Shown: positions 9,429-38,097 of the stretch, one piece after another
How the letters are laid out: every line of letters starts with the position of its first letter
Numbering within the stretch: position 1 is the first letter of the stretch
Source of the DNA: an uncultured Eubacteriales bacterium
GTDB lineage: Bacteria; Bacillota; Clostridia; Oscillospirales; Acutalibacteraceae
Length of the DNA stretch: 64,000 nucleotides
Direction of reading: 5' to 3'
Assembly (NCBI GenBank): GCA_934728355.1
Contig: CAKVEA010000001.1
Span: 412-64,411, forward strand
Translations under genes and position numbers: made by a program
Notes under the pieces: model-generated
The model's database searches: none
Told to the model about the DNA's origin: nothing
What the model saw: the letters and a program-made list of their open reading frames with translations, nothing else

Positions 9429-10793
9429 ATGATACATAAATTTAAATTTGAAAATACTAATTTTGTAATAGACGTAAATAGCGGATCAATTCATATAGTT
9501 GATGACGTTTTCTATGATATTCTTGATTTAATTCCCGGAAATTTTTTTGACTATACTAAATCATACATAATAAAAAAATTAGAAAATAAATATCCTTTAT
9601 CCGAAATAGAGGAAGCATATCAAGAAGCTTTTTCTCTTTATAAAGATGAAAAACTTTTTTCTAAAGACATCTATGAAAAAATTGTTTCTGAAAAAACAAT
9701 TTTATCTCCTATAAAAGCAGTGTGTTTAAATGTTGCTCATGATTGCAATCTAAAATGCAGTTATTGCTTTGCATCAAAAGGAGATTTCAAATGTAAAAGA
9801 GAATTAATGAGCCTCGAAACCGCAAAAAACACAGTAGACTTTTTAATTGCCAATTCAGGGAATATAAAAAATCTTGAAATGGATTTCTTTGGCGGTGAGC
9901 CTTTAATGAATTTTGAAGTAGTAAAAGAAACAGTAAAATATGCCAGAAGTATGGAAAAAATTCACGGAAAAAATTTCAGATTCACAATAACAACCAACGG
10001 TATACTTCTTGATGATGAAAAAATAGATTTTATAAATAAAGAAATGTATGATGTTGTTCTTTCTTTAGACGGGAGAAAAGAAATAAACGACCTTTTCAGA
10101 TTAACAAAGGTCGGTACAGGATCATACGATTTGATTATTCCAAAATTTAAAAAACTAGTTTCACTAAGAGGTGAAAAACAATACTACGTAAGAGGAACAT
10201 ACACAAAGAAAAATCTAGATTTTTCTAAGGATGTCTTTCATATTTATAATTTAGGATTTAGTCAAATTTCCATGGAACCCGCACTTTCAAAAGAAGAATT
10301 TGGATTTGCAATAGATGAAAACGATTTACCCAAAGTACTCAAAGAACACGAACTTCTTTGCAAAAAACTTATAGAAATGAAAAAAAGTGGCAGCGACATA
10401 AATTTCTTTAATTTTAATATCAGTATAAATAACGGCCCTTGCATTTCAAAAAGATTGAAAGGATGCGGTTTCGGAAACGATTATATAGCGGTTACTCCAA
10501 GCGGAGATATATATCCTTGTCACCAATTAATAGGTGAAAATAACTTTTTAATGGGAAATGTAAATAAGAATTACTTTAATAATGAGCTTAAAAATGAATT
10601 CCTTAATTTAACTGTTTATCACAAAGAAAAATGTAAAAACTGCTGGGCTAAATTTTATTGCTGTGGAGGTTGCAGCTCTAAAAATTATCAATTCAACGGA
10701 AATTTAAAATCTCCGTTCAGTATTACGTGCGAACTTCAAAAGAAAAAAATAGAATGTTCCATTGCGTACAATGTTTTAAGCGGTAATGTTTAA
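9429..10793 (+). CDS. scfB: Radical SAM/SPASM peptide maturase of the SCIFF system
   Basis: 454 aa. N-terminus MIHKFKFENTNFVIDVNSGSIHIVDD is typical of ScfB. Radical SAM CNLKCSYC. Cys-rich C-terminal SPASM region (CGFGN..., CKNCWAKFYCCGGC). Confidence 0.9.
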   Translation: MIHKFKFENTNFVIDVNSGSIHIVDDVFYDILDLIPGNFFDYTKSYIIKKLENKYPLSEIEEAYQEAFSLYKDEKLFSKDIYEKIVSEKTILSPIKAVCLNVAHDCNLKCSYCFASKGDFKCKRELMSLETAKNTVDFLIANSGNIKNLEMDFFGGEPLMNFEVVKETVKYARSMEKIHGKNFRFTITTNGILLDDEKIDFINKEMYDVVLSLDGRKEINDLFRLTKVGTGSYDLIIPKFKKLVSLRGEKQYYVRGTYTKKNLDFSKDVFHIYNLGFSQISMEPALSKEEFGFAIDENDLPKVLKEHELLCKKLIEMKKSGSDINFFNFNISINNGPCISKRLKGCGFGNDYIAVTPSGDIYPCHQLIGENNFLMGNVNKNYFNNELKNEFLNLTVYHKEKCKNCWAKFYCCGGCSSKNYQFNGNLKSPFSITCELQKKKIECSIAYNVLSGNV

Positions 10794-16755: not shown

Positions 16756-17943
16756 TTAATTTTTTGAAATTACTTCTTTAAGATCTTCCACCTTATCAAG
16801 CTTTTCCCAAGCAACATCCAAATCCTCTCTACCCATATGACCATATGAAGAAAGCTTTGAATATATCGGTAAATTAAGATTAAAATTCTTGATAATCGAT
16901 GATGGTCTTAAATCAAATACTTCTGATAGTACTTCTGATAAATATTCATCGGAAAAAGAAGATGTTCCAAAAGTGTCAACCATGACCGAAACAGGCTTAG
17001 AAACACCAATAGCATATGCTATTTGAACTTCACATTTATCAGCTATTCCTGCTGCGACTATATTTTTAGCAACATATCTCGCAGCATATGCACCTGACCT
17101 ATCCACTTTAGTTGGATCTTTACCAGAAAAAGCTCCACCTCCATGACGTGCATAACCACCATATGTATCAACTATAATTTTTCTTCCTGTGAGTCCGCTG
17201 TCTCCTGCAGGGCCGCCAACAACAAATCTTCCGGTTGGATTTACAAAAATTTTTGTTTTTTCATCAATTAAATTTGAAGGTATAGTTTTAAGAATAACTT
17301 TCTCGGTTATGTCGGATTTTATTGTTTCCAAATCAACATCATTTTTATGCTGAGATGAAACAACCACTGTGTCAATACGTACCGGTAATCCATCATCATA
17401 CTCAACTGTAACCTGAGTTTTGCCATCAGGTCTTAAATAATCTATAATATTTTCTCTTCTTACTTCCTCAAGTCTTTTAGCAAGTTTATGTGCAAGAGAA
17501 ATAGGAAGCGGCATAAATTCAGGAGTTTCTTTACAAGCAAATCCGAACATCATTCCTTGGTCTCCTGCTCCGATTAAACTCTCAGGGCTTTCATCTCCGT
17601 TTTTGCTTTCAATAGAATTGCAAACACCCATTGCAATGTCAGGAGATTGAGAATTTATTGAAATTATAACTCCGCAAGTATTTCCGTCAAATCCTGCATC
17701 AGAACTATTATATCCTACACTTTTAACAGCATTTCTAACTTCTTTTTCTATATCAACGTAACAATTGGTTGTAATTTCTCCCATAACATGTATAAGCCCC
17801 ATGGCTGCGGTTACTTCACAAGCAACATGAGCATTCGGATCTTTTTTTAAAATAGCATCAAGAATACTGTCGGATATTAAATCACAAAGTTTATCCGGGT
17901 GACCACAGGTAACAGATTCCGATGTAAATAATTTTTTTATCAT
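16756..17943 (-). CDS. metK: S-adenosylmethionine synthetase
   Basis: 395 aa. [20 protein letters not shown] and [19 protein letters not shown]. Confidence 0.97.
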
Positions 17944-17990
17944 CTTTAAGTAACCTCCATTTTAAAATTTCTACTTCTTATTATCTATTA

Positions 17991-18019
17991 ATTCTAACTC
18001 AAAAAGGAGCAATCGTCAA
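17991..18019 (-). promoter_or_regulatory. Sigma-A type promoter of metK(-pheST)
   Basis: On the minus strand, TTGACG, a 17-nt spacer, then TAGAAT. This leaves only about 40 nt of leader before the metK ATG. Confidence 0.55.
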
Positions 18020-18086
18020 CAAGAGCATAAATAAATATGCCCTACTGTGAGGTATAATTAAAAATATATATTTTTATTAATTTATA

Positions 18087-18114
18087 TTGACATATTTTAT
18101 TTAATATGTATAAT
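18087..18114 (+). promoter_or_regulatory. Near-consensus sigma-A promoter of the GG-leader peptide array
   Basis: TTGACA (18087-18092), a 16-nt spacer ending in TG, then TATAAT (18109-18114). Confidence 0.65.
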
Positions 18115-18148
18115 ATAGTAGTGAATTTAATTTTAGGAGGTATAAAAA

Positions 18149-18436
18149 ATGGAAAAAAACAAAAATTCAAGAGAAAAATTAAATGAACAACAGTCAGAAA
18201 AAATTTCCGGAGGATTCATTCGAAACCGAGAGGATGGAATATTTATAGATAAGGAAAGTGGAAATAAATATAAATCATACTGCGATTTTTGCGGTAGAGA
18301 AATAGAAGGCCGAGGTGCGTTTTTAGTACCCGGAAGACGAACTGCATGTATATATTGCTATGAGAAACTTAATAAAATGAATCCTAATGATTTCAAAGCT
18401 GACCTTTCTGACCTTTCTAACAACGAATTCGCATAA
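18149..18436 (+). CDS. Double-glycine-leader small protein with a CxxC-x18-CxxC core (copy 1)
   Basis: 95 aa. Leader MEKNKNSREKLNEQQSEKISGG. Core has YCDFCGREIEGRGAFLVPGRRTACIYCYEKL. AGGAGG lies 8 nt upstream. Confidence 0.8.
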   Translation: MEKNKNSREKLNEQQSEKISGGFIRNREDGIFIDKESGNKYKSYCDFCGREIEGRGAFLVPGRRTACIYCYEKLNKMNPNDFKADLSDLSNNEFA

Positions 18437-18453
18437 ATAAGGAGGAAAATAAA

Positions 18454-18741
18454 ATGATAGAAAACGAAAACTTAAAAAAAGAATTAAATGAGGAAGAAAT
18501 GGATAAAGTTTCCGGAGGATTCACTAGAAACAACGATAATGGGGTATTTATAAACGAAGATGGAAAGAGATATAATTTATATTGCGATTATTGCAATAGA
18601 AAAATAAAAGACCGAGGTGCGTTTTCAACACCCAAAGGAAAACATGCTTGCATACGTTGTTATGAGAAACTTCACAAAACAGATGATGAATGGTTTGAAG
18701 GTTACCCTCATAGTCTGATTGACGACGAACTCGCATACTAA
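18454..18741 (+). CDS. Double-glycine-leader small protein with a CxxC-x18-CxxC core (copy 2)
   Basis: 95 aa. Leader MIENENLKKELNEEEMDKVSGG. Core has YCDYCNRKIKDRGAFSTPKGKHACIRCYEKL. AGGAGG lies 8 nt upstream. Confidence 0.8.
   Translation: MIENENLKKELNEEEMDKVSGGFTRNNDNGVFINEDGKRYNLYCDYCNRKIKDRGAFSTPKGKHACIRCYEKLHKTDDEWFEGYPHSLIDDELAY
18459..18491 (+). repeat. 33-nt segment identical to 18748-18780 (leader-coding DNA of copies 2 and 3)
   Basis: agaaaacgaaaacttaaaaaaagaattaaatga is present in both genes. Confidence 0.85.
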
Positions 18742-18742
18742 A

Positions 18743-18952
18743 ATGGAAGAAAACGAAAACTTAAAAAAAGAATTAAATGAAAAGGATACACAAAATGTTT
18801 CAGGAGGATACACCTATACCACCAAAGATGATTGTGACTTCTGTGATAGAAAAAATTGTCGTGTTATAACAACAGATTCTTTAAATCATGCTTGTTTAAA
18901 ATGTTATTCGAAAATTTGTAAAATAAATAGAAAATATAATAAAGACATATAG
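18743..18952 (+). CDS. Double-glycine-leader small protein, shortened core CxxC-x16-CxxC (copy 3)
   Basis: 69 aa from ATG 18743. Leader MEENENLKKELNEKDTQNVSGG. Core has DCDFCDRKNCRVITTDSLNHACLKCYSKI. It starts 1 nt after the copy-2 stop and has no SD. Confidence 0.65.
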   Translation: MEENENLKKELNEKDTQNVSGGYTYTTKDDCDFCDRKNCRVITTDSLNHACLKCYSKICKINRKYNKDI

Positions 18953-18970
18953 TCATTATAATACAAATAA

Positions 18971-19000
18971 GAAAGACTACTCCTTTTGGAGTAGTCTTTC
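18971..19000. terminator. Bidirectional rho-independent terminator between the peptide array and tuf
   Basis: gaaagactactcc-tttt-ggagtagtctttc forms a 13-bp perfect stem. Confidence 0.85.
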
Positions 19001-19011
19001 CTACTTTAAAA

Positions 19012-20214
19012 CTATTCGATAATTTCTGTTACAACACCTGAACCAACTGTTCTGCCGCCTTCACGAATAGCAAAACGGAGTCCTTCTTCAATTGCGATAG
19101 GAGTAATTAGTTCAACTTCCATTACAACGTTATCGCCAGGCATGCACATTTCTGTACCTTCCGGAAGTTTGATAACACCTGTTACGTCTGTTGTTCTGAA
19201 ATAGAACTGAGGACGATAATTGTTAAAGAATGGAGTATGACGTCCGCCTTCATCTTTGGTCAATACATAAACTTGACCTTTGAATTTGGTATGAGGATGA
19301 ATTGTTCCTGGTTTAGCAAGAACTTGACCACGTTGAATTTCATCTCTTTGAATACCACGTAAAAGAACACCTACGTTGTCGCCTGCTTCAGCATAATCGA
19401 GAAGTTTTCTGAACATTTCGATACCTGTAACAACAACTTTTTTCTTTTCTTCTGTAAGACCCACTAATTCTACTTCTTCACCCATTTTGAGTTGTCCACG
19501 TTCAACTCTACCTGTAGCAACTGTTCCACGACCTGTAATTGTGAAAACATCTTCAACAGGCATAAGGAATGGTTGATCTGCTTTTCTTTCAGGTGTAGGA
19601 ATGAAGTTATCAACAGCTTCCATTAATTCAATAATGCATTTGTATTCTGGAGCTGCAGGATCTTTTGAAGTACTTTCAAGAACTTGAAGAGCCGATCCAC
19701 GAATAATTGGGGTATCGTCACCCGGGAATTCGTATTCATTAAGAAGTTCACGAATTTCCATTTCTACGAGATCTAAAAGTTCAGGATCGTCTACTTGGTC
19801 AACTTTGTTCATGAAAACAACAATTTTAGGAACACCAACCTGACGTGCAAGTAAGATGTGTTCACGAGTCTGAGGCATAGGACCGTCAGCAGCTGAAACA
19901 ACAAGGATTGCACCGTCCATTTGAGCTGCACCGGTAATCATGTTTTTAACATAGTCAGCATGGCCTGGGCAGTCAACGTGTGCATAGTGGCGAGATGCTG
20001 TTTGATATTCAACATGTGAAGTATTAATTGTAATACCACGTTCTCTTTCTTCAGGAGCTTTGTCGATATTTGAGTAATCAACAAATTCAGAATCTCCTTT
20101 AAGGTTAAGAACTTTAGTAATTGCAGCTGTAAGGGTTGTTTTACCGTGGTCAACGTGACCGATAGTACCAATGTTTACATGTGGCTTACTTCTTTCAAAT
20201 TTTGCTTTTGCCAT
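19012..20214 (-). CDS. tuf: Elongation factor Tu
   Basis: 400 aa. [17 protein letters not shown] and NKVD. Confidence 0.98.
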
Positions 20215-35355: not shown

Positions 35356-36573
35356 TTAGCCTTTTAAAATTTCTTTTGGAAAACATTTATTTTCCATCGC
35401 ATATGTAAGATCCAAAACTTCTACATCGCAGTTTTCTTCACTTACATCAATTTTTTTATCATAAGGGACAGAAATTACAAAACGATCCCTTTCATTAACA
35501 TATACTTTTTTCTTTTCCCCATTTTCGGTACAAAACTCATTTTCTTTCCACAGGTTTTCATCAAAATTAAATTCTACTTCATTTGATGTAAAAATGCCAC
35601 TAATTTTTTTTAAATTATTGTCACTACAAAAATAAGGTGAAATTGTTCTCTTTTCTCCGCCGAGTTCTTTTAAAGTTATTCCTTTGTTATTTAAAGAATA
35701 CAACCATCTTGTGAAAGAATATTTTATTCCGCCGCAGCTATCGACTGGTATTTCACGACTGCACCAAATCACAGGTCTTTTTTCGCATAAAAATTTTTTA
35801 AATTTTGCTTTACTTTCTATTGCATATGATATTCCACATTTTTCCTTTACAATGTTTGCAAAAGAAATCTCTTCAGGAGTGCTTTTGGAATCTAGTGCCA
35901 TTGCTGCATAAATTCTAGCATCAGCAACTGTCAATAATCCTTTTTTTAATGAGAATACTAACTTATTTTTTGCATCAATATAATAATCTTTTCCTGAAAC
36001 GTTGACTTTTTCTAAATCGCTTTTTCCTTTAAGATTTTCATCTTCGCAATTTTTATCTAGCAAAACTACATTATCCAAATCAATACGTAAACCTTCATTA
36101 AACTTTAAAGTAGCAACTGAACCTGTACAACTTATATCCAAATTATCAATATCATTAGTAATTTCATTAAGTGGTACAAATTTCTCTTCCTCAACACCAT
36201 CTTTGTTTTTTTCAATTACCTTTAAGATAATCATATCTTTTATTTTTTTAACAAGTTCATCCTCATTACCTGCAAAAGAATCATAAGTTCTTTCCCACGC
36301 AGCTATTTTTAAAATATTATCAGGGGTTTCTTTAATTCTACTAGGAAAGATTAGTGGTCTATTAACGAGATACTCAAAATCTCTTACTTTGTCTACAAAT
36401 CTTTCATGTGGTAAAACAACTTTTTTCTCCCAAAAGTATGGGTCCCATTTCGGCGGATAAATTCCTGCTGTTACAATACTATCCGGATTATATGCATATG
36501 TCGGAACGACTGCACCGGAAATTGATAAAATAGAAAGCATTGCTGCTATAGATTTTGAAAATTTCTTATTCAT
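35356..36573 (-). CDS. Hypothetical secreted protein
   Basis: Start set at MNKKFSK (ATG 36573) with GGAGGAG upstream. Signal peptide ...SISGAVVPTYA. No family recognised. Confidence 0.6.
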   Translation of the reverse strand: MNKKFSKSIAAMLSILSISGAVVPTYAYNPDSIVTAGIYPPKWDPYFWEKKVVLPHERFVDKVRDFEYLVNRPLIFPSRIKETPDNILKIAAWERTYDSFAGNEDELVKKIKDMIILKVIEKNKDGVEEEKFVPLNEITNDIDNLDISCTGSVATLKFNEGLRIDLDNVVLLDKNCEDENLKGKSDLEKVNVSGKDYYIDAKNKLVFSLKKGLLTVADARIYAAMALDSKSTPEEISFANIVKEKCGISYAIESKAKFKKFLCEKRPVIWCSREIPVDSCGGIKYSFTRWLYSLNNKGITLKELGGEKRTISPYFCSDNNLKKISGIFTSNEVEFNFDENLWKENEFCTENGEKKKVYVNERDRFVISVPYDKKIDVSEENCDVEVLDLTYAMENKCFPKEILKG

Positions 36574-36879
36574 AACTCCTCCTGAAATTACATAAAATTT
36601 TTCGTTTGAAATATTGATAATCAAACCTATATCCAATGTTTTTGTAATGATTTATTACATAATATATAATACTGCTTTGAATGTATATTTTCAACCCCTT
36701 TTTACATAAAATTAAAATATTCTTATATAATTAATAAAAGCATTTATATTTAAAAGTATAAATTATATAAATTAAATAAATAAAATTCAAAATAAAAAAT
36801 AGAAGTATTAAAAAAATAATACCTCTATAGATTTTTAATTTAATGTATCAGACTAAAATCAATTGTATTTTATTAAATA

Positions 36880-37353: not shown

Positions 37354-38097
37354 TCAACTAGATTCCCCAACTATAAACCTTGAAAGAAATTGTTGAGTTC
37401 TTTCATTTTTCGGATTAACTAAAATATCCTCAGGAGTACCTTCTTCACAAATAACTCCACCATCCATAAAAGAAATTTTAGTAGAAACTTCTTTCGCAAA
37501 TGCCATTTCATGCGTTACTATTATCATGGTAAGACCAAAATCAGCAAGCTCTTTCATAACCTTAAGAACCTCACCGACTGTTTCAGGATCAAGTGCTGAA
37601 GTAGGCTCATCGAAAAGCAAAACTTTAGGATTCATTGCTAAAGCTCTTGCAATAGCTACTCTTTGCTTTTGACCTCCTGAAAGTTGTTTAGGCTTTGCAT
37701 CTGCAAATCTTAACATCTGAACTTGATCTAAAAATCTTATAGCATCTCTGCGTGCTTCATTTGAATTTCTTTTCAAAACACGTACAGGTCCGACCATACA
37801 ATTTTCAAGAACACTTAAATTACTAAATAGATTAAATTGCTGGAAAACCATTCCTACTTCAGAACGATATTTATCGATATTATAGCCATTTGAAAGTATA
37901 TTCTTACCACCATAAATAATTTCACCTGAATCGGGTCTTTCAAGTAAATTTATACATCTCAAAAAAGTAGATTTACCGGAACCCGAAGGTCCTATTATGC
38001 AAGAAACATCTCCTTCTCTAATGCTGTAATTAACACCTTTAAGTATTTCGTTATTTCCAAAAGATTTTCTAAGTCTTTTAACTTCTATAATACTCAT
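37354..38097 (-). CDS. Polar amino acid ABC transporter, ATP-binding protein
   Basis: 247 aa. [24 protein letters not shown] and [11 protein letters not shown]. Confidence 0.92.

Follow-up and report, generated by a model that had tools for sequence, protein, structure and literature searches.

The stretch of 64,000 nucleotides analysed here (the window) belongs to contig CAKVEA010000001.1 of an uncultured Eubacteriales bacterium, and its interval between metK and tuf holds three homologous small open reading frames (ORFs), all on the + strand, which encode proteins of 95, 95 and 69 amino acids (aa). Each protein begins with a leader that ends in two glycines and continues with a core in which two CxxC pairs are separated by 18 residues in copies 1 and 2 and by 16 residues in copy 3. 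The copies are paralogous, with tblastn E-values of 1.6e-25 for copies 1 and 2, 2.9e-12 for copies 2 and 3, and 1.2e-7 for copies 1 and 3. A preliminary description of this DNA had reported the array of three genes, the end of the leader at residue 22 and the spacing of the Cys pairs, and all of these are borne out by the ORFs and their paralogy. The copy 1 protein (P0002) is found in identical form on 10 contigs, and copy 3 has a homologue, P0009. The coordinates of the features are given in Table 1.

Table 1. Positions in the window of the small-protein genes, their expression signals and neighbours, and the SCIFF genes.
Feature	Position	Strand	Remarks
SCIFF precursor, 46 aa	9225-9365	+	MKHIKTVTTKDLKKTVLTGGCGECQASCQ...CECK; PF13165 in identical contig
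SCIFF radical-SAM maturase (thioether-forming)	9429-10793	+	TIGR03974, 645 bits vs cut-off 425
metK	16756-17943	-	divergent from array
Array promoter, sigma-70-type	18087-18114	+	TTGACA-16-TATAAT; consensus score 12/12
Copy 1, 95 aa	18149-18436	+	22-aa leader ...SEKISGG, then 73-aa core CDFC-x18-CIYC
Copy 2, 95 aa	18454-18741	+	leader ...EEMDKVSGG, then core CDYC-x18-CIRC
Copy 3, 69 aa	18743-18952	+	leader ...DTQNVSGG, then 47-aa core CDFC-x16-CLKC and two extra Cys
Perfect hairpin, 13 bp, between array and tuf	18971-19000	.	dG -21.8 kcal/mol, z = -6.15
tuf	19012-20214	-	convergent with array
efp	40358-40915	-	downstream of fourth member, co-directional
Fourth family member, 68 aa	41148-41354	-	15-aa leader MNLNDNKIDEKVSGG, then core CEIC-x21-CLSC
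Fourth-member promoter, sigma-70-type	41408-41436	-	TTGACA-17-TATAAT; score 12/12

The array is preceded by a consensus promoter, the -35 hexamer of which is retained in strain L001. Copies 1 and 2 each have an AGGAGG Shine–Dalgarno (SD) sequence 8 nt ahead of its ATG; copy 3 lacks an SD, its start codon lies 1 nt past the stop codon of copy 2, and it is therefore probably translationally coupled. The perfect hairpin on the far side of copy 3 is the probable terminator of the convergent array/tuf pair and is possibly bidirectional; its stem is retained in L001, with an altered loop. It should be noted that a consensus terminator scan did not call this hairpin, because the T-tract downstream of it is weak. 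Of the expression signals described earlier, the promoter, the two SDs and the 13-bp stem stand, but the TG is not a canonical TGn extended -10 because it abuts the -10 hexamer.

A fourth member directly upstream of efp was overlooked in the preliminary description. This gene has a GGAGG SD, and its product, MNLNDNKIDEKVSGG-NGSTENGICEICGRK...CCLSCRSKL, has the same architecture as the array copies and matches copy 3 with a tblastn E-value of 4e-4. Perfect TTGACA-N16-18-TATAAT promoters occur only twice on both strands of the 64 kb, against a chance expectation of 0.18, and there is one for each family locus. Because the sole two perfect promoters of the window precede these genes, both loci are expected to be strongly transcribed by the housekeeping sigma factor.

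The family was delimited by searches of increasing sensitivity. A word-indexed search of 5.8 billion proteins returned strain variants only, and 1.84 billion cluster representatives, searched exhaustively with an HMMER profile, gave 23 proteins at E <= 1e-3, about 17 of which are small proteins of the same layout, the remainder being repeat proteins that match by composition. Additional family members were gained in a third profile search. Conservation of the Cys and GG residues was read from an alignment of 22 sequences, and that of the leader positions from 33 leader-bearing sequences.

No Pfam domains were found among the family members detected by HMMER, and the two members for which the source gives an annotation are labelled "hypothetical protein [Clostridia bacterium]". 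Searches of Pfam, NCBIfam, PHROGs and PADLOC gave no curated family above threshold except for copy 3 against TIGR01847, together with generic zinc-finger and leader matches. The family is real and conserved, and it is unnamed in every library searched; the earlier statement that the core is not recognisable as a described bacteriocin or RiPP class agrees with the finding that no characterised family scores above threshold. Spurious ORFs are ruled out by the conservation of the proteins across lineages and by their invariant residues. On the best reading, this is a small, lineage-restricted family made of ribosomally produced precursor proteins of 70-100 residues.

Identical copies of proteins of the window were found in human-gut metagenomes of the Hadza and of other cohorts, on contigs as long as 206 kb; contigs of the window species up to that length are found in ERZ28614309 and related assemblies. 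The MetK of the window finds its best match among GTDB species representatives at only 73% identity, in uncultured Clostridia metagenome-assembled genomes (MAGs). A scan of genome contigs with patterns of the window type gave no match, and a scan of JGI metagenomes returned an already known array (L095) and unrelated zinc-finger proteins, with nothing further. Judging by its gene content, the host is a spore-forming member of Clostridia, because the window encodes SpoIVA, SipL, GerA/B/C and SCIFF. No relatives of the family were matched in plasmids, phages or viral contigs, so that a mobile, phage or plasmid origin is unsupported; a role in anti-phage defence is ruled out by PADLOC matches at chance level.

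The leaders of the three array copies end in EKISGG, DKVSGG and QNVSGG and have Leu at -12 and Ile or Val at -4, with Met at -7 in copy 2 alone, as had been read from the sequences before. Across the 33 leaders, position -4 is Val or Ile in every case, position -12 is Leu in about 31, and position -8 is mostly acidic. The GG at -2/-1 is present in all four window copies and in about 32 of the 33 family sequences (one has AG, and one sequence from a short contig lacks a leader); in the 22-sequence alignment it is found in at least 90%. Homologues thus keep both the GG and the four Cys, and none has a clear match to a known family.

The NCBIfam model of bacteriocin signals, TIGR01847 (bacteriocin_sig, cut-off 15.7 bits), scores copy 3 at 17.6 bits and copy 2 at 15.3 bits and does not match copy 1; at E <= 0.1 it matches 6 of 22 family members. 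Other leader-driven models were matched weakly, namely ComC, class IIb, plantaricin C (16-18 bits), the CTB family and TIGR04149 (GG_sam_targ_CFB; 14.9 bits vs a cut-off of 25). In the full-length AlphaFold2 (AF2) model, the leader has a predicted local distance difference test (pLDDT) score below 50 and is therefore modelled as disordered. The leader is a charged segment of 15-25 residues, probably helical or disordered, that ends in [VI]-[SA]-G-G.

The four Cys of the core are invariant in all 22 aligned members. The two pairs are 16-29 residues apart, and the first knuckle is often CxxCG. The cores are 47-88 aa long and hydrophilic, with a grand average of hydropathy (GRAVY) of -0.2 to -1.1, and their isoelectric points (pI) vary from 4.6 to 9.6, many being acidic or neutral; hence they are not typical class II bacteriocins.

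Almost all weak sequence matches of the core are to zinc-finger modules (TRASH, L24e, DZR, LIM, DksA/TraR and ClpX), and no curated zinc-finger model exceeds its gathering score (GA). The nearest is zf-dskA_traR, with 22.6 bits vs a GA of 24.9 for P0013 and matches in only 2 of 22 members, followed by LIM (18.0 vs 22.9), TRASH (13.9 vs 27) and DZR (13.4 vs 27.3). Weak matches of the DksA/TraR type were also given by an NCBIfam model in 4 members and by a DksA-like PHROG in 5. A profile search of the PDB gave LIM, C2H2, S26e and L24e at E >= 0.003, with the ClpX zinc-binding domain (ZBD) and Gin also among the matches. There were no TraR or DksA chains among the best 60 of 97 PDB profile matches (E up to ~1.5).

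Two assignments were rejected on these data. Membership in TraR/DksA falls short of the gathering score and is without support from the PDB profile, and it survives only inside the cytoplasmic explanation considered below; identity with L24e/TRASH is sub-threshold, and the second Cys pair is misspaced for it.

The AF2 models, built on a 21-sequence alignment, have a pLDDT of 56 at full length and of 65 for the copy 1 core, with values of ~70-80 for residues 21-60. In the core model, beta-strands run into the first CxxC and are followed by a beta-hairpin and by a helix that begins at the second CxxC, an arrangement resembling a treble clef. The top Foldseek matches are nearly all zinc treble-clef domains (RING, ZZ, LIM, ClpX ZBD and B-box). 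Since the structure models are of low confidence, these fold assignments are only indicative. The zinc-ribbon-like core proposed in the preliminary description is thus upheld by the invariant Cys, the sub-threshold zinc-finger matches and the low-confidence treble clef, and the core most likely binds one Zn(II) in a treble-clef or zinc-ribbon fold, as far as such models can suggest.

A core of this type can also be explained by a cytoplasmic function. The proteins would then be C4 zinc-finger mini-proteins in the style of TraR/DksA, the ClpX ZBD or the anti-sigma factor Gin/CsfB, their N-terminal motif would bind a conserved cellular partner without being cleaved, and the likeness to GG leaders would be convergent. 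The invariant Cys4 of a zinc-finger-like core speaks for this explanation, as do the recurring weak matches to intracellular zinc fingers (zf-dskA_traR, DksA/TraR, ClpX ZBD and Gin), but no zinc-finger family is reached above a curated threshold and TraR/DksA is missing from the best 60 of the 97 PDB profile matches. A disordered N-terminal tail that surpasses the folded domain in conservation, closes with an invariant [VI]SGG and is matched by a hidden Markov model of bacteriocin signals would also be hard to reconcile with a cytosolic regulator. We regard a cytoplasmic function as possible but doubtful.

The properties of the core also bear on a narrow form of the export reading given below, in which these would be classical class II bacteriocins without modification that make target membranes permeable while an immunity protein guards the producer. 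The GG-type leader, the multi-copy tandem arrays and the strain polymorphism would suit such peptides, and so would the two members, P0007 and P0015, in which a short hydrophobic stretch follows directly on the GG. The cores at large, however, have the negative GRAVY values and the frequently acidic or neutral pI given above, no small membrane-protein ORF that could confer immunity lies in or beside the arrays, and no bacteriocin family is matched past the leader. Because the cores are hydrophilic, often acidic and without an immunity gene, a pore-forming bacteriocin is unlikely, and we consider this explanation highly improbable.

P0007 and P0015 (the latter at L094 601-930) deserve a separate remark. 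In both, a leader of the window type is followed by the hydrophobic stretch (FIIPLAAIATKK and FGPLGFLLTTQL, respectively) and then by the Cys4 module, the stretch replacing the hydrophilic beta-hairpin region. They may represent a membrane-interacting subtype.

The leader and the core differ in their rates of evolution. Of 75 pairs compared within four groups, 70 have a leader better conserved than the core, and in group a, for instance, the identity is 0.90 for the leader and 0.42 for the core. The ratio of non-synonymous to synonymous substitutions (dN/dS) is 0.34-0.49 for cores, 0.06-0.16 for leaders and 0.045 for metK, with dN = 0 for efp and tuf. At the DNA level, the best-conserved repeat of the array is the 75 nt that encode the leader.

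Leaders are also exchanged from one core to another. One leader is found on unrelated core N-termini in P0007 and P0015, and leaders are swapped in sister strains: P0001 and the copy of L007 combine the copy 2 core with the leader of copy 3, P0003 has the copy 1 core with a leader of the copy 3 type, and L001 has the copy 2 core behind a leader of that same type. The cassette content varies among strains, and on L094 the cassettes stand in a different order, with P0015 followed by a gene like copy 1. Between the window and L001, metK is 89% identical in DNA, whereas the segment from the copy 2 core through copy 3 is 98% identical, copies 2 and 3 as a whole having ~98% identity. Copy 1 of L001 (2025-2277, Logan SRR29133671) is a different allele, of the P0005 type, with a leader ending in SSG and not SGG, and it is a pseudogene because a 38-nt deletion puts the second CxxC out of frame.

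The sharpest contrast is given by L088 and L092, in which EF-P is identical (dS 0.008) and the flanks are 98-100% identical. The identity of the small ORF, by contrast, is 87% (dS 0.30, dN 0.11), and divergence does not reach past this ORF and the stretch just upstream of it. Taken together, these data show that the family loci are an allelic hot spot with recombination, in which a constant leader is joined to a fast-diversifying core. A signature of this kind is typical of secreted peptides whose leader serves a shared machinery. An allelic hot spot, cassette shuffling and pseudogenisation are also unexpected for a cytoplasmic partner of conserved core machinery.

Members of the family occupy two fixed chromosomal slots or occur in tandem arrays. 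The first slot, between metK and tuf, holds three copies in the window species and three in strain L001; group a MAGs have one copy in it, namely P0012 in RGIG2532, a MAG from goat jejunum with the accession JAFRJS01, and P0013, which was found on four contigs. The second slot, directly upstream of efp and co-directional with it, is that of the fourth copy of the window and of P0025, P0030 and P0033 of group b, whose neighbours are gatCAB to one side and, to the other, efp, a gene with a CD1247 domain and an amino-acid ABC importer; P0025 is carried by GCA_030526145.1. The 1.2-kb contig L095 (JGI metagenome 3300024345, contig Ga0255062_10118903, 1-1221) bears a distant tandem array with at least four members that share a leader of their own, MSEKEVKxLEnExxEVAGG, and have very different cores of 77, 94 and 77 aa, with truncated copies at both contig ends. 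Arrays of such genes are thus not limited to the lineage of the window.

We weighed the reading that these are strain-polymorphic zinc-ribbon proteins with a GG leader, which are exported and are processed by an unlinked ATP-binding cassette (ABC) transporter that contains a peptidase (PCAT), and we place its probability at roughly one half. According to this model, the genes would be strongly transcribed from consensus sigma-A promoters, and a PCAT-type ABC exporter, its gene lying at another place in the genome, would recognise the leader through its C39 peptidase domain. The C39 domain would cut after the GG, and the core would be exported unfolded and would take up its fold in the reducing gut lumen, either with bound zinc or as a mini-protein rich in thiols. 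Its targets there would be other strains or cells, and its role one in competition, recognition or signalling. We propose that the core diversifies behind a constant leader because it acts extracellularly on other strains; the constant leader and variable core, the hot spot, the tandem amplification and the strong promoters together indicate such a strain-discriminating role outside the cell. The genes, the family, its division into leader and core, the conserved Cys and GG, the expression signals and the allelic hot spot are observed; cleavage at the GG, export, zinc binding and the role outside the cell are inferred.

Several observations weigh against this model. A Cys4 zinc finger is typically an intracellular module. 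The exporter was looked for in the window by a scan for Walker A and signature motifs and by Pfam and NCBIfam searches of unassigned ORFs, and, as the preliminary description had stated, the 64 kb have neither a C39 peptidase nor an ABC exporter, the sole ABC ATPase (37354-38097) being a component of an amino-acid importer. Nor was one found in the ~8 kb past the 3' end of the window, the 5' side being the contig end, or, for six other contexts, in the +/-10 kb around the homologues. Immunity-like or receptor genes are likewise missing next to the copies in the window and near the homologues, and a pheromone function is unsupported because no receptor is linked.

The genomic setting points the same way, since both slots keep a stable synteny with housekeeping genes even in organisms with MetK proteins only 73% identical, and such fixed housekeeping synteny is unusual for bacteriocin loci. 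The structural evidence is limited by the low confidence of the AF2 models (pLDDT 56 and 65) and by a Foldseek search without a significant match (E >= 0.2). The hydrophilic cores and their pI range are also unlike the gut GG-type class II cores, which are reported to be ~40 aa long and hydrophobic (bioRxiv 10.1101/2024.07.15.603639).

The leader itself departs from the known pattern at one position. The recognition consensus of GG leaders is Leu(-12)-x3-Glu(-8)-Leu(-7)...Gly-Gly (PMC6363468), and binding to PCAT1 is strongly weakened by L(-7)A and L(-12)A mutations, recognition by LahT being likewise strongly reduced by L(-7)A (PMC6959990). In the family, position -7 is hydrophobic in 4 of 33 leaders and is T, E or S in the other 29, so that most members lack the full Glu(-8)-Leu(-7) element recognised by ComA, PCAT1 and LahT, -7 being polar. 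The double-glycine leader described earlier is thus supported by TIGR01847 scores at or near the cut-off for copies 3 and 2, by the conservation of GG, -4 and -12 and by the excess of leader over core conservation, but not by position -7. An unlinked C39/PCAT exporter with an altered specificity for -7 would possibly account for this. The polar -7, the lack of export machinery in the regions examined and the slots fixed beside translation and housekeeping genes would all be in keeping with a cytoplasmic zinc-finger protein.

The invariant Cys and the GG-type leader would also be compatible with precursors of ribosomally synthesised peptides with post-translational modifications (RiPPs). In this case the Cys would be crosslinked by thioether bridges, made by a radical-SAM enzyme (as in sacti-, ranthi- or SCIFF-like peptides) or by another unlinked enzyme, before GG cleavage and export. 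Precursor models give weak matches (TIGR04149 and plantaricin C, with the scores above), and the genome has at least one radical-SAM/SPASM peptide maturase, the SCIFF enzyme at 7.3 kb from the array, contrary to the earlier claim that the 64 kb contains no modifying enzyme. This maturase, however, is a SCIFF equivalog with its own adjoining precursor, which reads ...VLTGG-CGEC at the end of its leader, and the SCIFF system is probably unrelated to the array. No small membrane ORF, radical-SAM enzyme or histidine kinase lies beside family genes in any context examined, the RiPP model matches are all under cut-off, and cores of 47-88 aa with zinc-knuckle spacing, CxxCG and a predicted beta-hairpin and helix resemble a folded domain and not a peptide substrate. 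We therefore consider crosslinked RiPP precursors unlikely.

The unlinked-PCAT model can be compared with known systems. The family resembles the GG-leader substrates of PCAT and ABC-transporter maturation and secretion (AMS) proteins, such as ComC, BlpC, class II bacteriocins and LahA peptides, in having GG, Val or Ile at -4, Leu at -12 and a mostly acidic -8, as well as a conserved leader with variable cores, tandem arrays, allele replacement between strains and one copy above the TIGR01847 cut-off. It differs from them in its mostly polar -7, in the lack of a linked transporter, immunity gene or two-component receptor, in its fixed housekeeping slots, and in its cargo, which is a zinc-finger-like Cys4 domain, hydrophilic and 47-88 aa long.

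The closest parallel in size is CtA of Clostridium thermocellum, a proven PCAT1 cargo 90 aa in length, of which 24 form the leader; it is unfolded during translocation, and its function is unknown (PDB 6V9Z; PMC6959990). The array proteins of 95 aa with a 22-aa leader come near to this, and both hosts belong to Clostridia, but CtA has a Leu at -7 and a gene that accompanies that of its transporter, and the invariant Cys4 is a feature of the family. A phmmer search of copy 2 against all PDB chains did not list CtA at E <= 10. The parallel with PCAT1 cargo drawn earlier is therefore one of size and architecture and does not extend to sequence similarity.

With the C4 treble-clef and zinc-ribbon modules (the LIM half-domain, DksA/TraR, ClpX ZBD and L24e/TRASH) the family shares the two CxxC knuckles and the predicted beta-hairpin followed by a helix. 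Those modules are intracellular and have no GG leader, the family stays under all their thresholds, and in TRASH and L24e the second Cys pair is CxxxC. SCIFF and other Cys-rich GG-type RiPP precursors (TIGR03973/PF13165, TIGR04149 and CcpM targets) are similarly small and Cys-rich, have a leader ending in GG and come from the same phylum, but they are ~45 aa long and lie beside a radical-SAM maturase, whereas the family proteins are twice as long, have zinc-finger spacing and adjoin no such enzyme.

If the proteins are exported, the cargo known for the double-glycine/PCAT pathway would no longer be short hydrophobic peptides alone but would include hydrophilic mini-domains that bind metal. They would then constitute a hypervariable, highly expressed surface or secreted factor of uncultured gut Clostridia, the lineage to which the family is confined, with a possible use as a strain marker, and may mediate competition or recognition at the strain level. 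A polar -7 would indicate a C39 peptidase of altered leader specificity, which would be of interest as a tool for leader removal. If the proteins are cytoplasmic instead, a motif like the GG leader can arise for another purpose, which calls for caution in the automated mining of bacteriocins and RiPPs.

Only tentatively can we go further and suggest a previously undescribed class: exported, strain-polymorphic zinc-finger mini-proteins that depend on an unlinked PCAT, occupy strongly promoted housekeeping slots without linked immunity or receptor genes, serve as a factor of inter-strain recognition or competition, and would be the first zinc-finger cargo of the GG/PCAT route. What would be new is a cargo that bears a GG leader on an unprecedented zinc-finger-like core and is encoded at unusual places in the genome; a new mechanism is not demonstrated by these data.

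Some further observations concern the surroundings of the family genes. Past the 3' end of the window, the ~8 kb examined encode a penicillin-binding protein, a peptidoglycan-binding protein, an ORF of 1891 aa and an M14 peptidase. The 1891-aa ORF (L104 526-6201, ~3.8-9.5 kb past the window) has no Pfam match and adjoins the PG_binding_1 protein and the M14 peptidase.

Directly downstream of efp, a 164-aa protein (39824-40318, - strand) carries at its N-terminus a CD1247 domain (NF045650, 68 bits) and, from near residue 76, a Cys/Asp-rich run, CGCGCDCDCGCDCED. The gene order small protein, efp, CD1247-domain gene and amino-acid ABC importer is kept in MAGs L088, L090 and L092. Four ORFs of the window go unmatched in Pfam and NCBIfam at E <= 1e-3, namely 41490-42689 (-, 399 aa), 42722-43399 (-, 225 aa), 35356-36636 (-, 426 aa) and 29-2386 (+, 785 aa), and at least three of them have N-termini like signal peptides. 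Two of these ORFs lie directly upstream of the fourth member and are not conserved there in other MAGs, in which the neighbour is gatB.

A search with Rfam at gathering thresholds gave no match across the 64-kb window, with no SAM riboswitch before metK (17944-18148) and no T-box before pheST. At many other Clostridia metK loci, a perfect TTGACA-N-TATAAT promoter lies ~200-290 nt upstream of metK, a position suited to a riboswitch leader. In the window, the space upstream of metK holds the promoter of the array in place of such a riboswitch-leader promoter.

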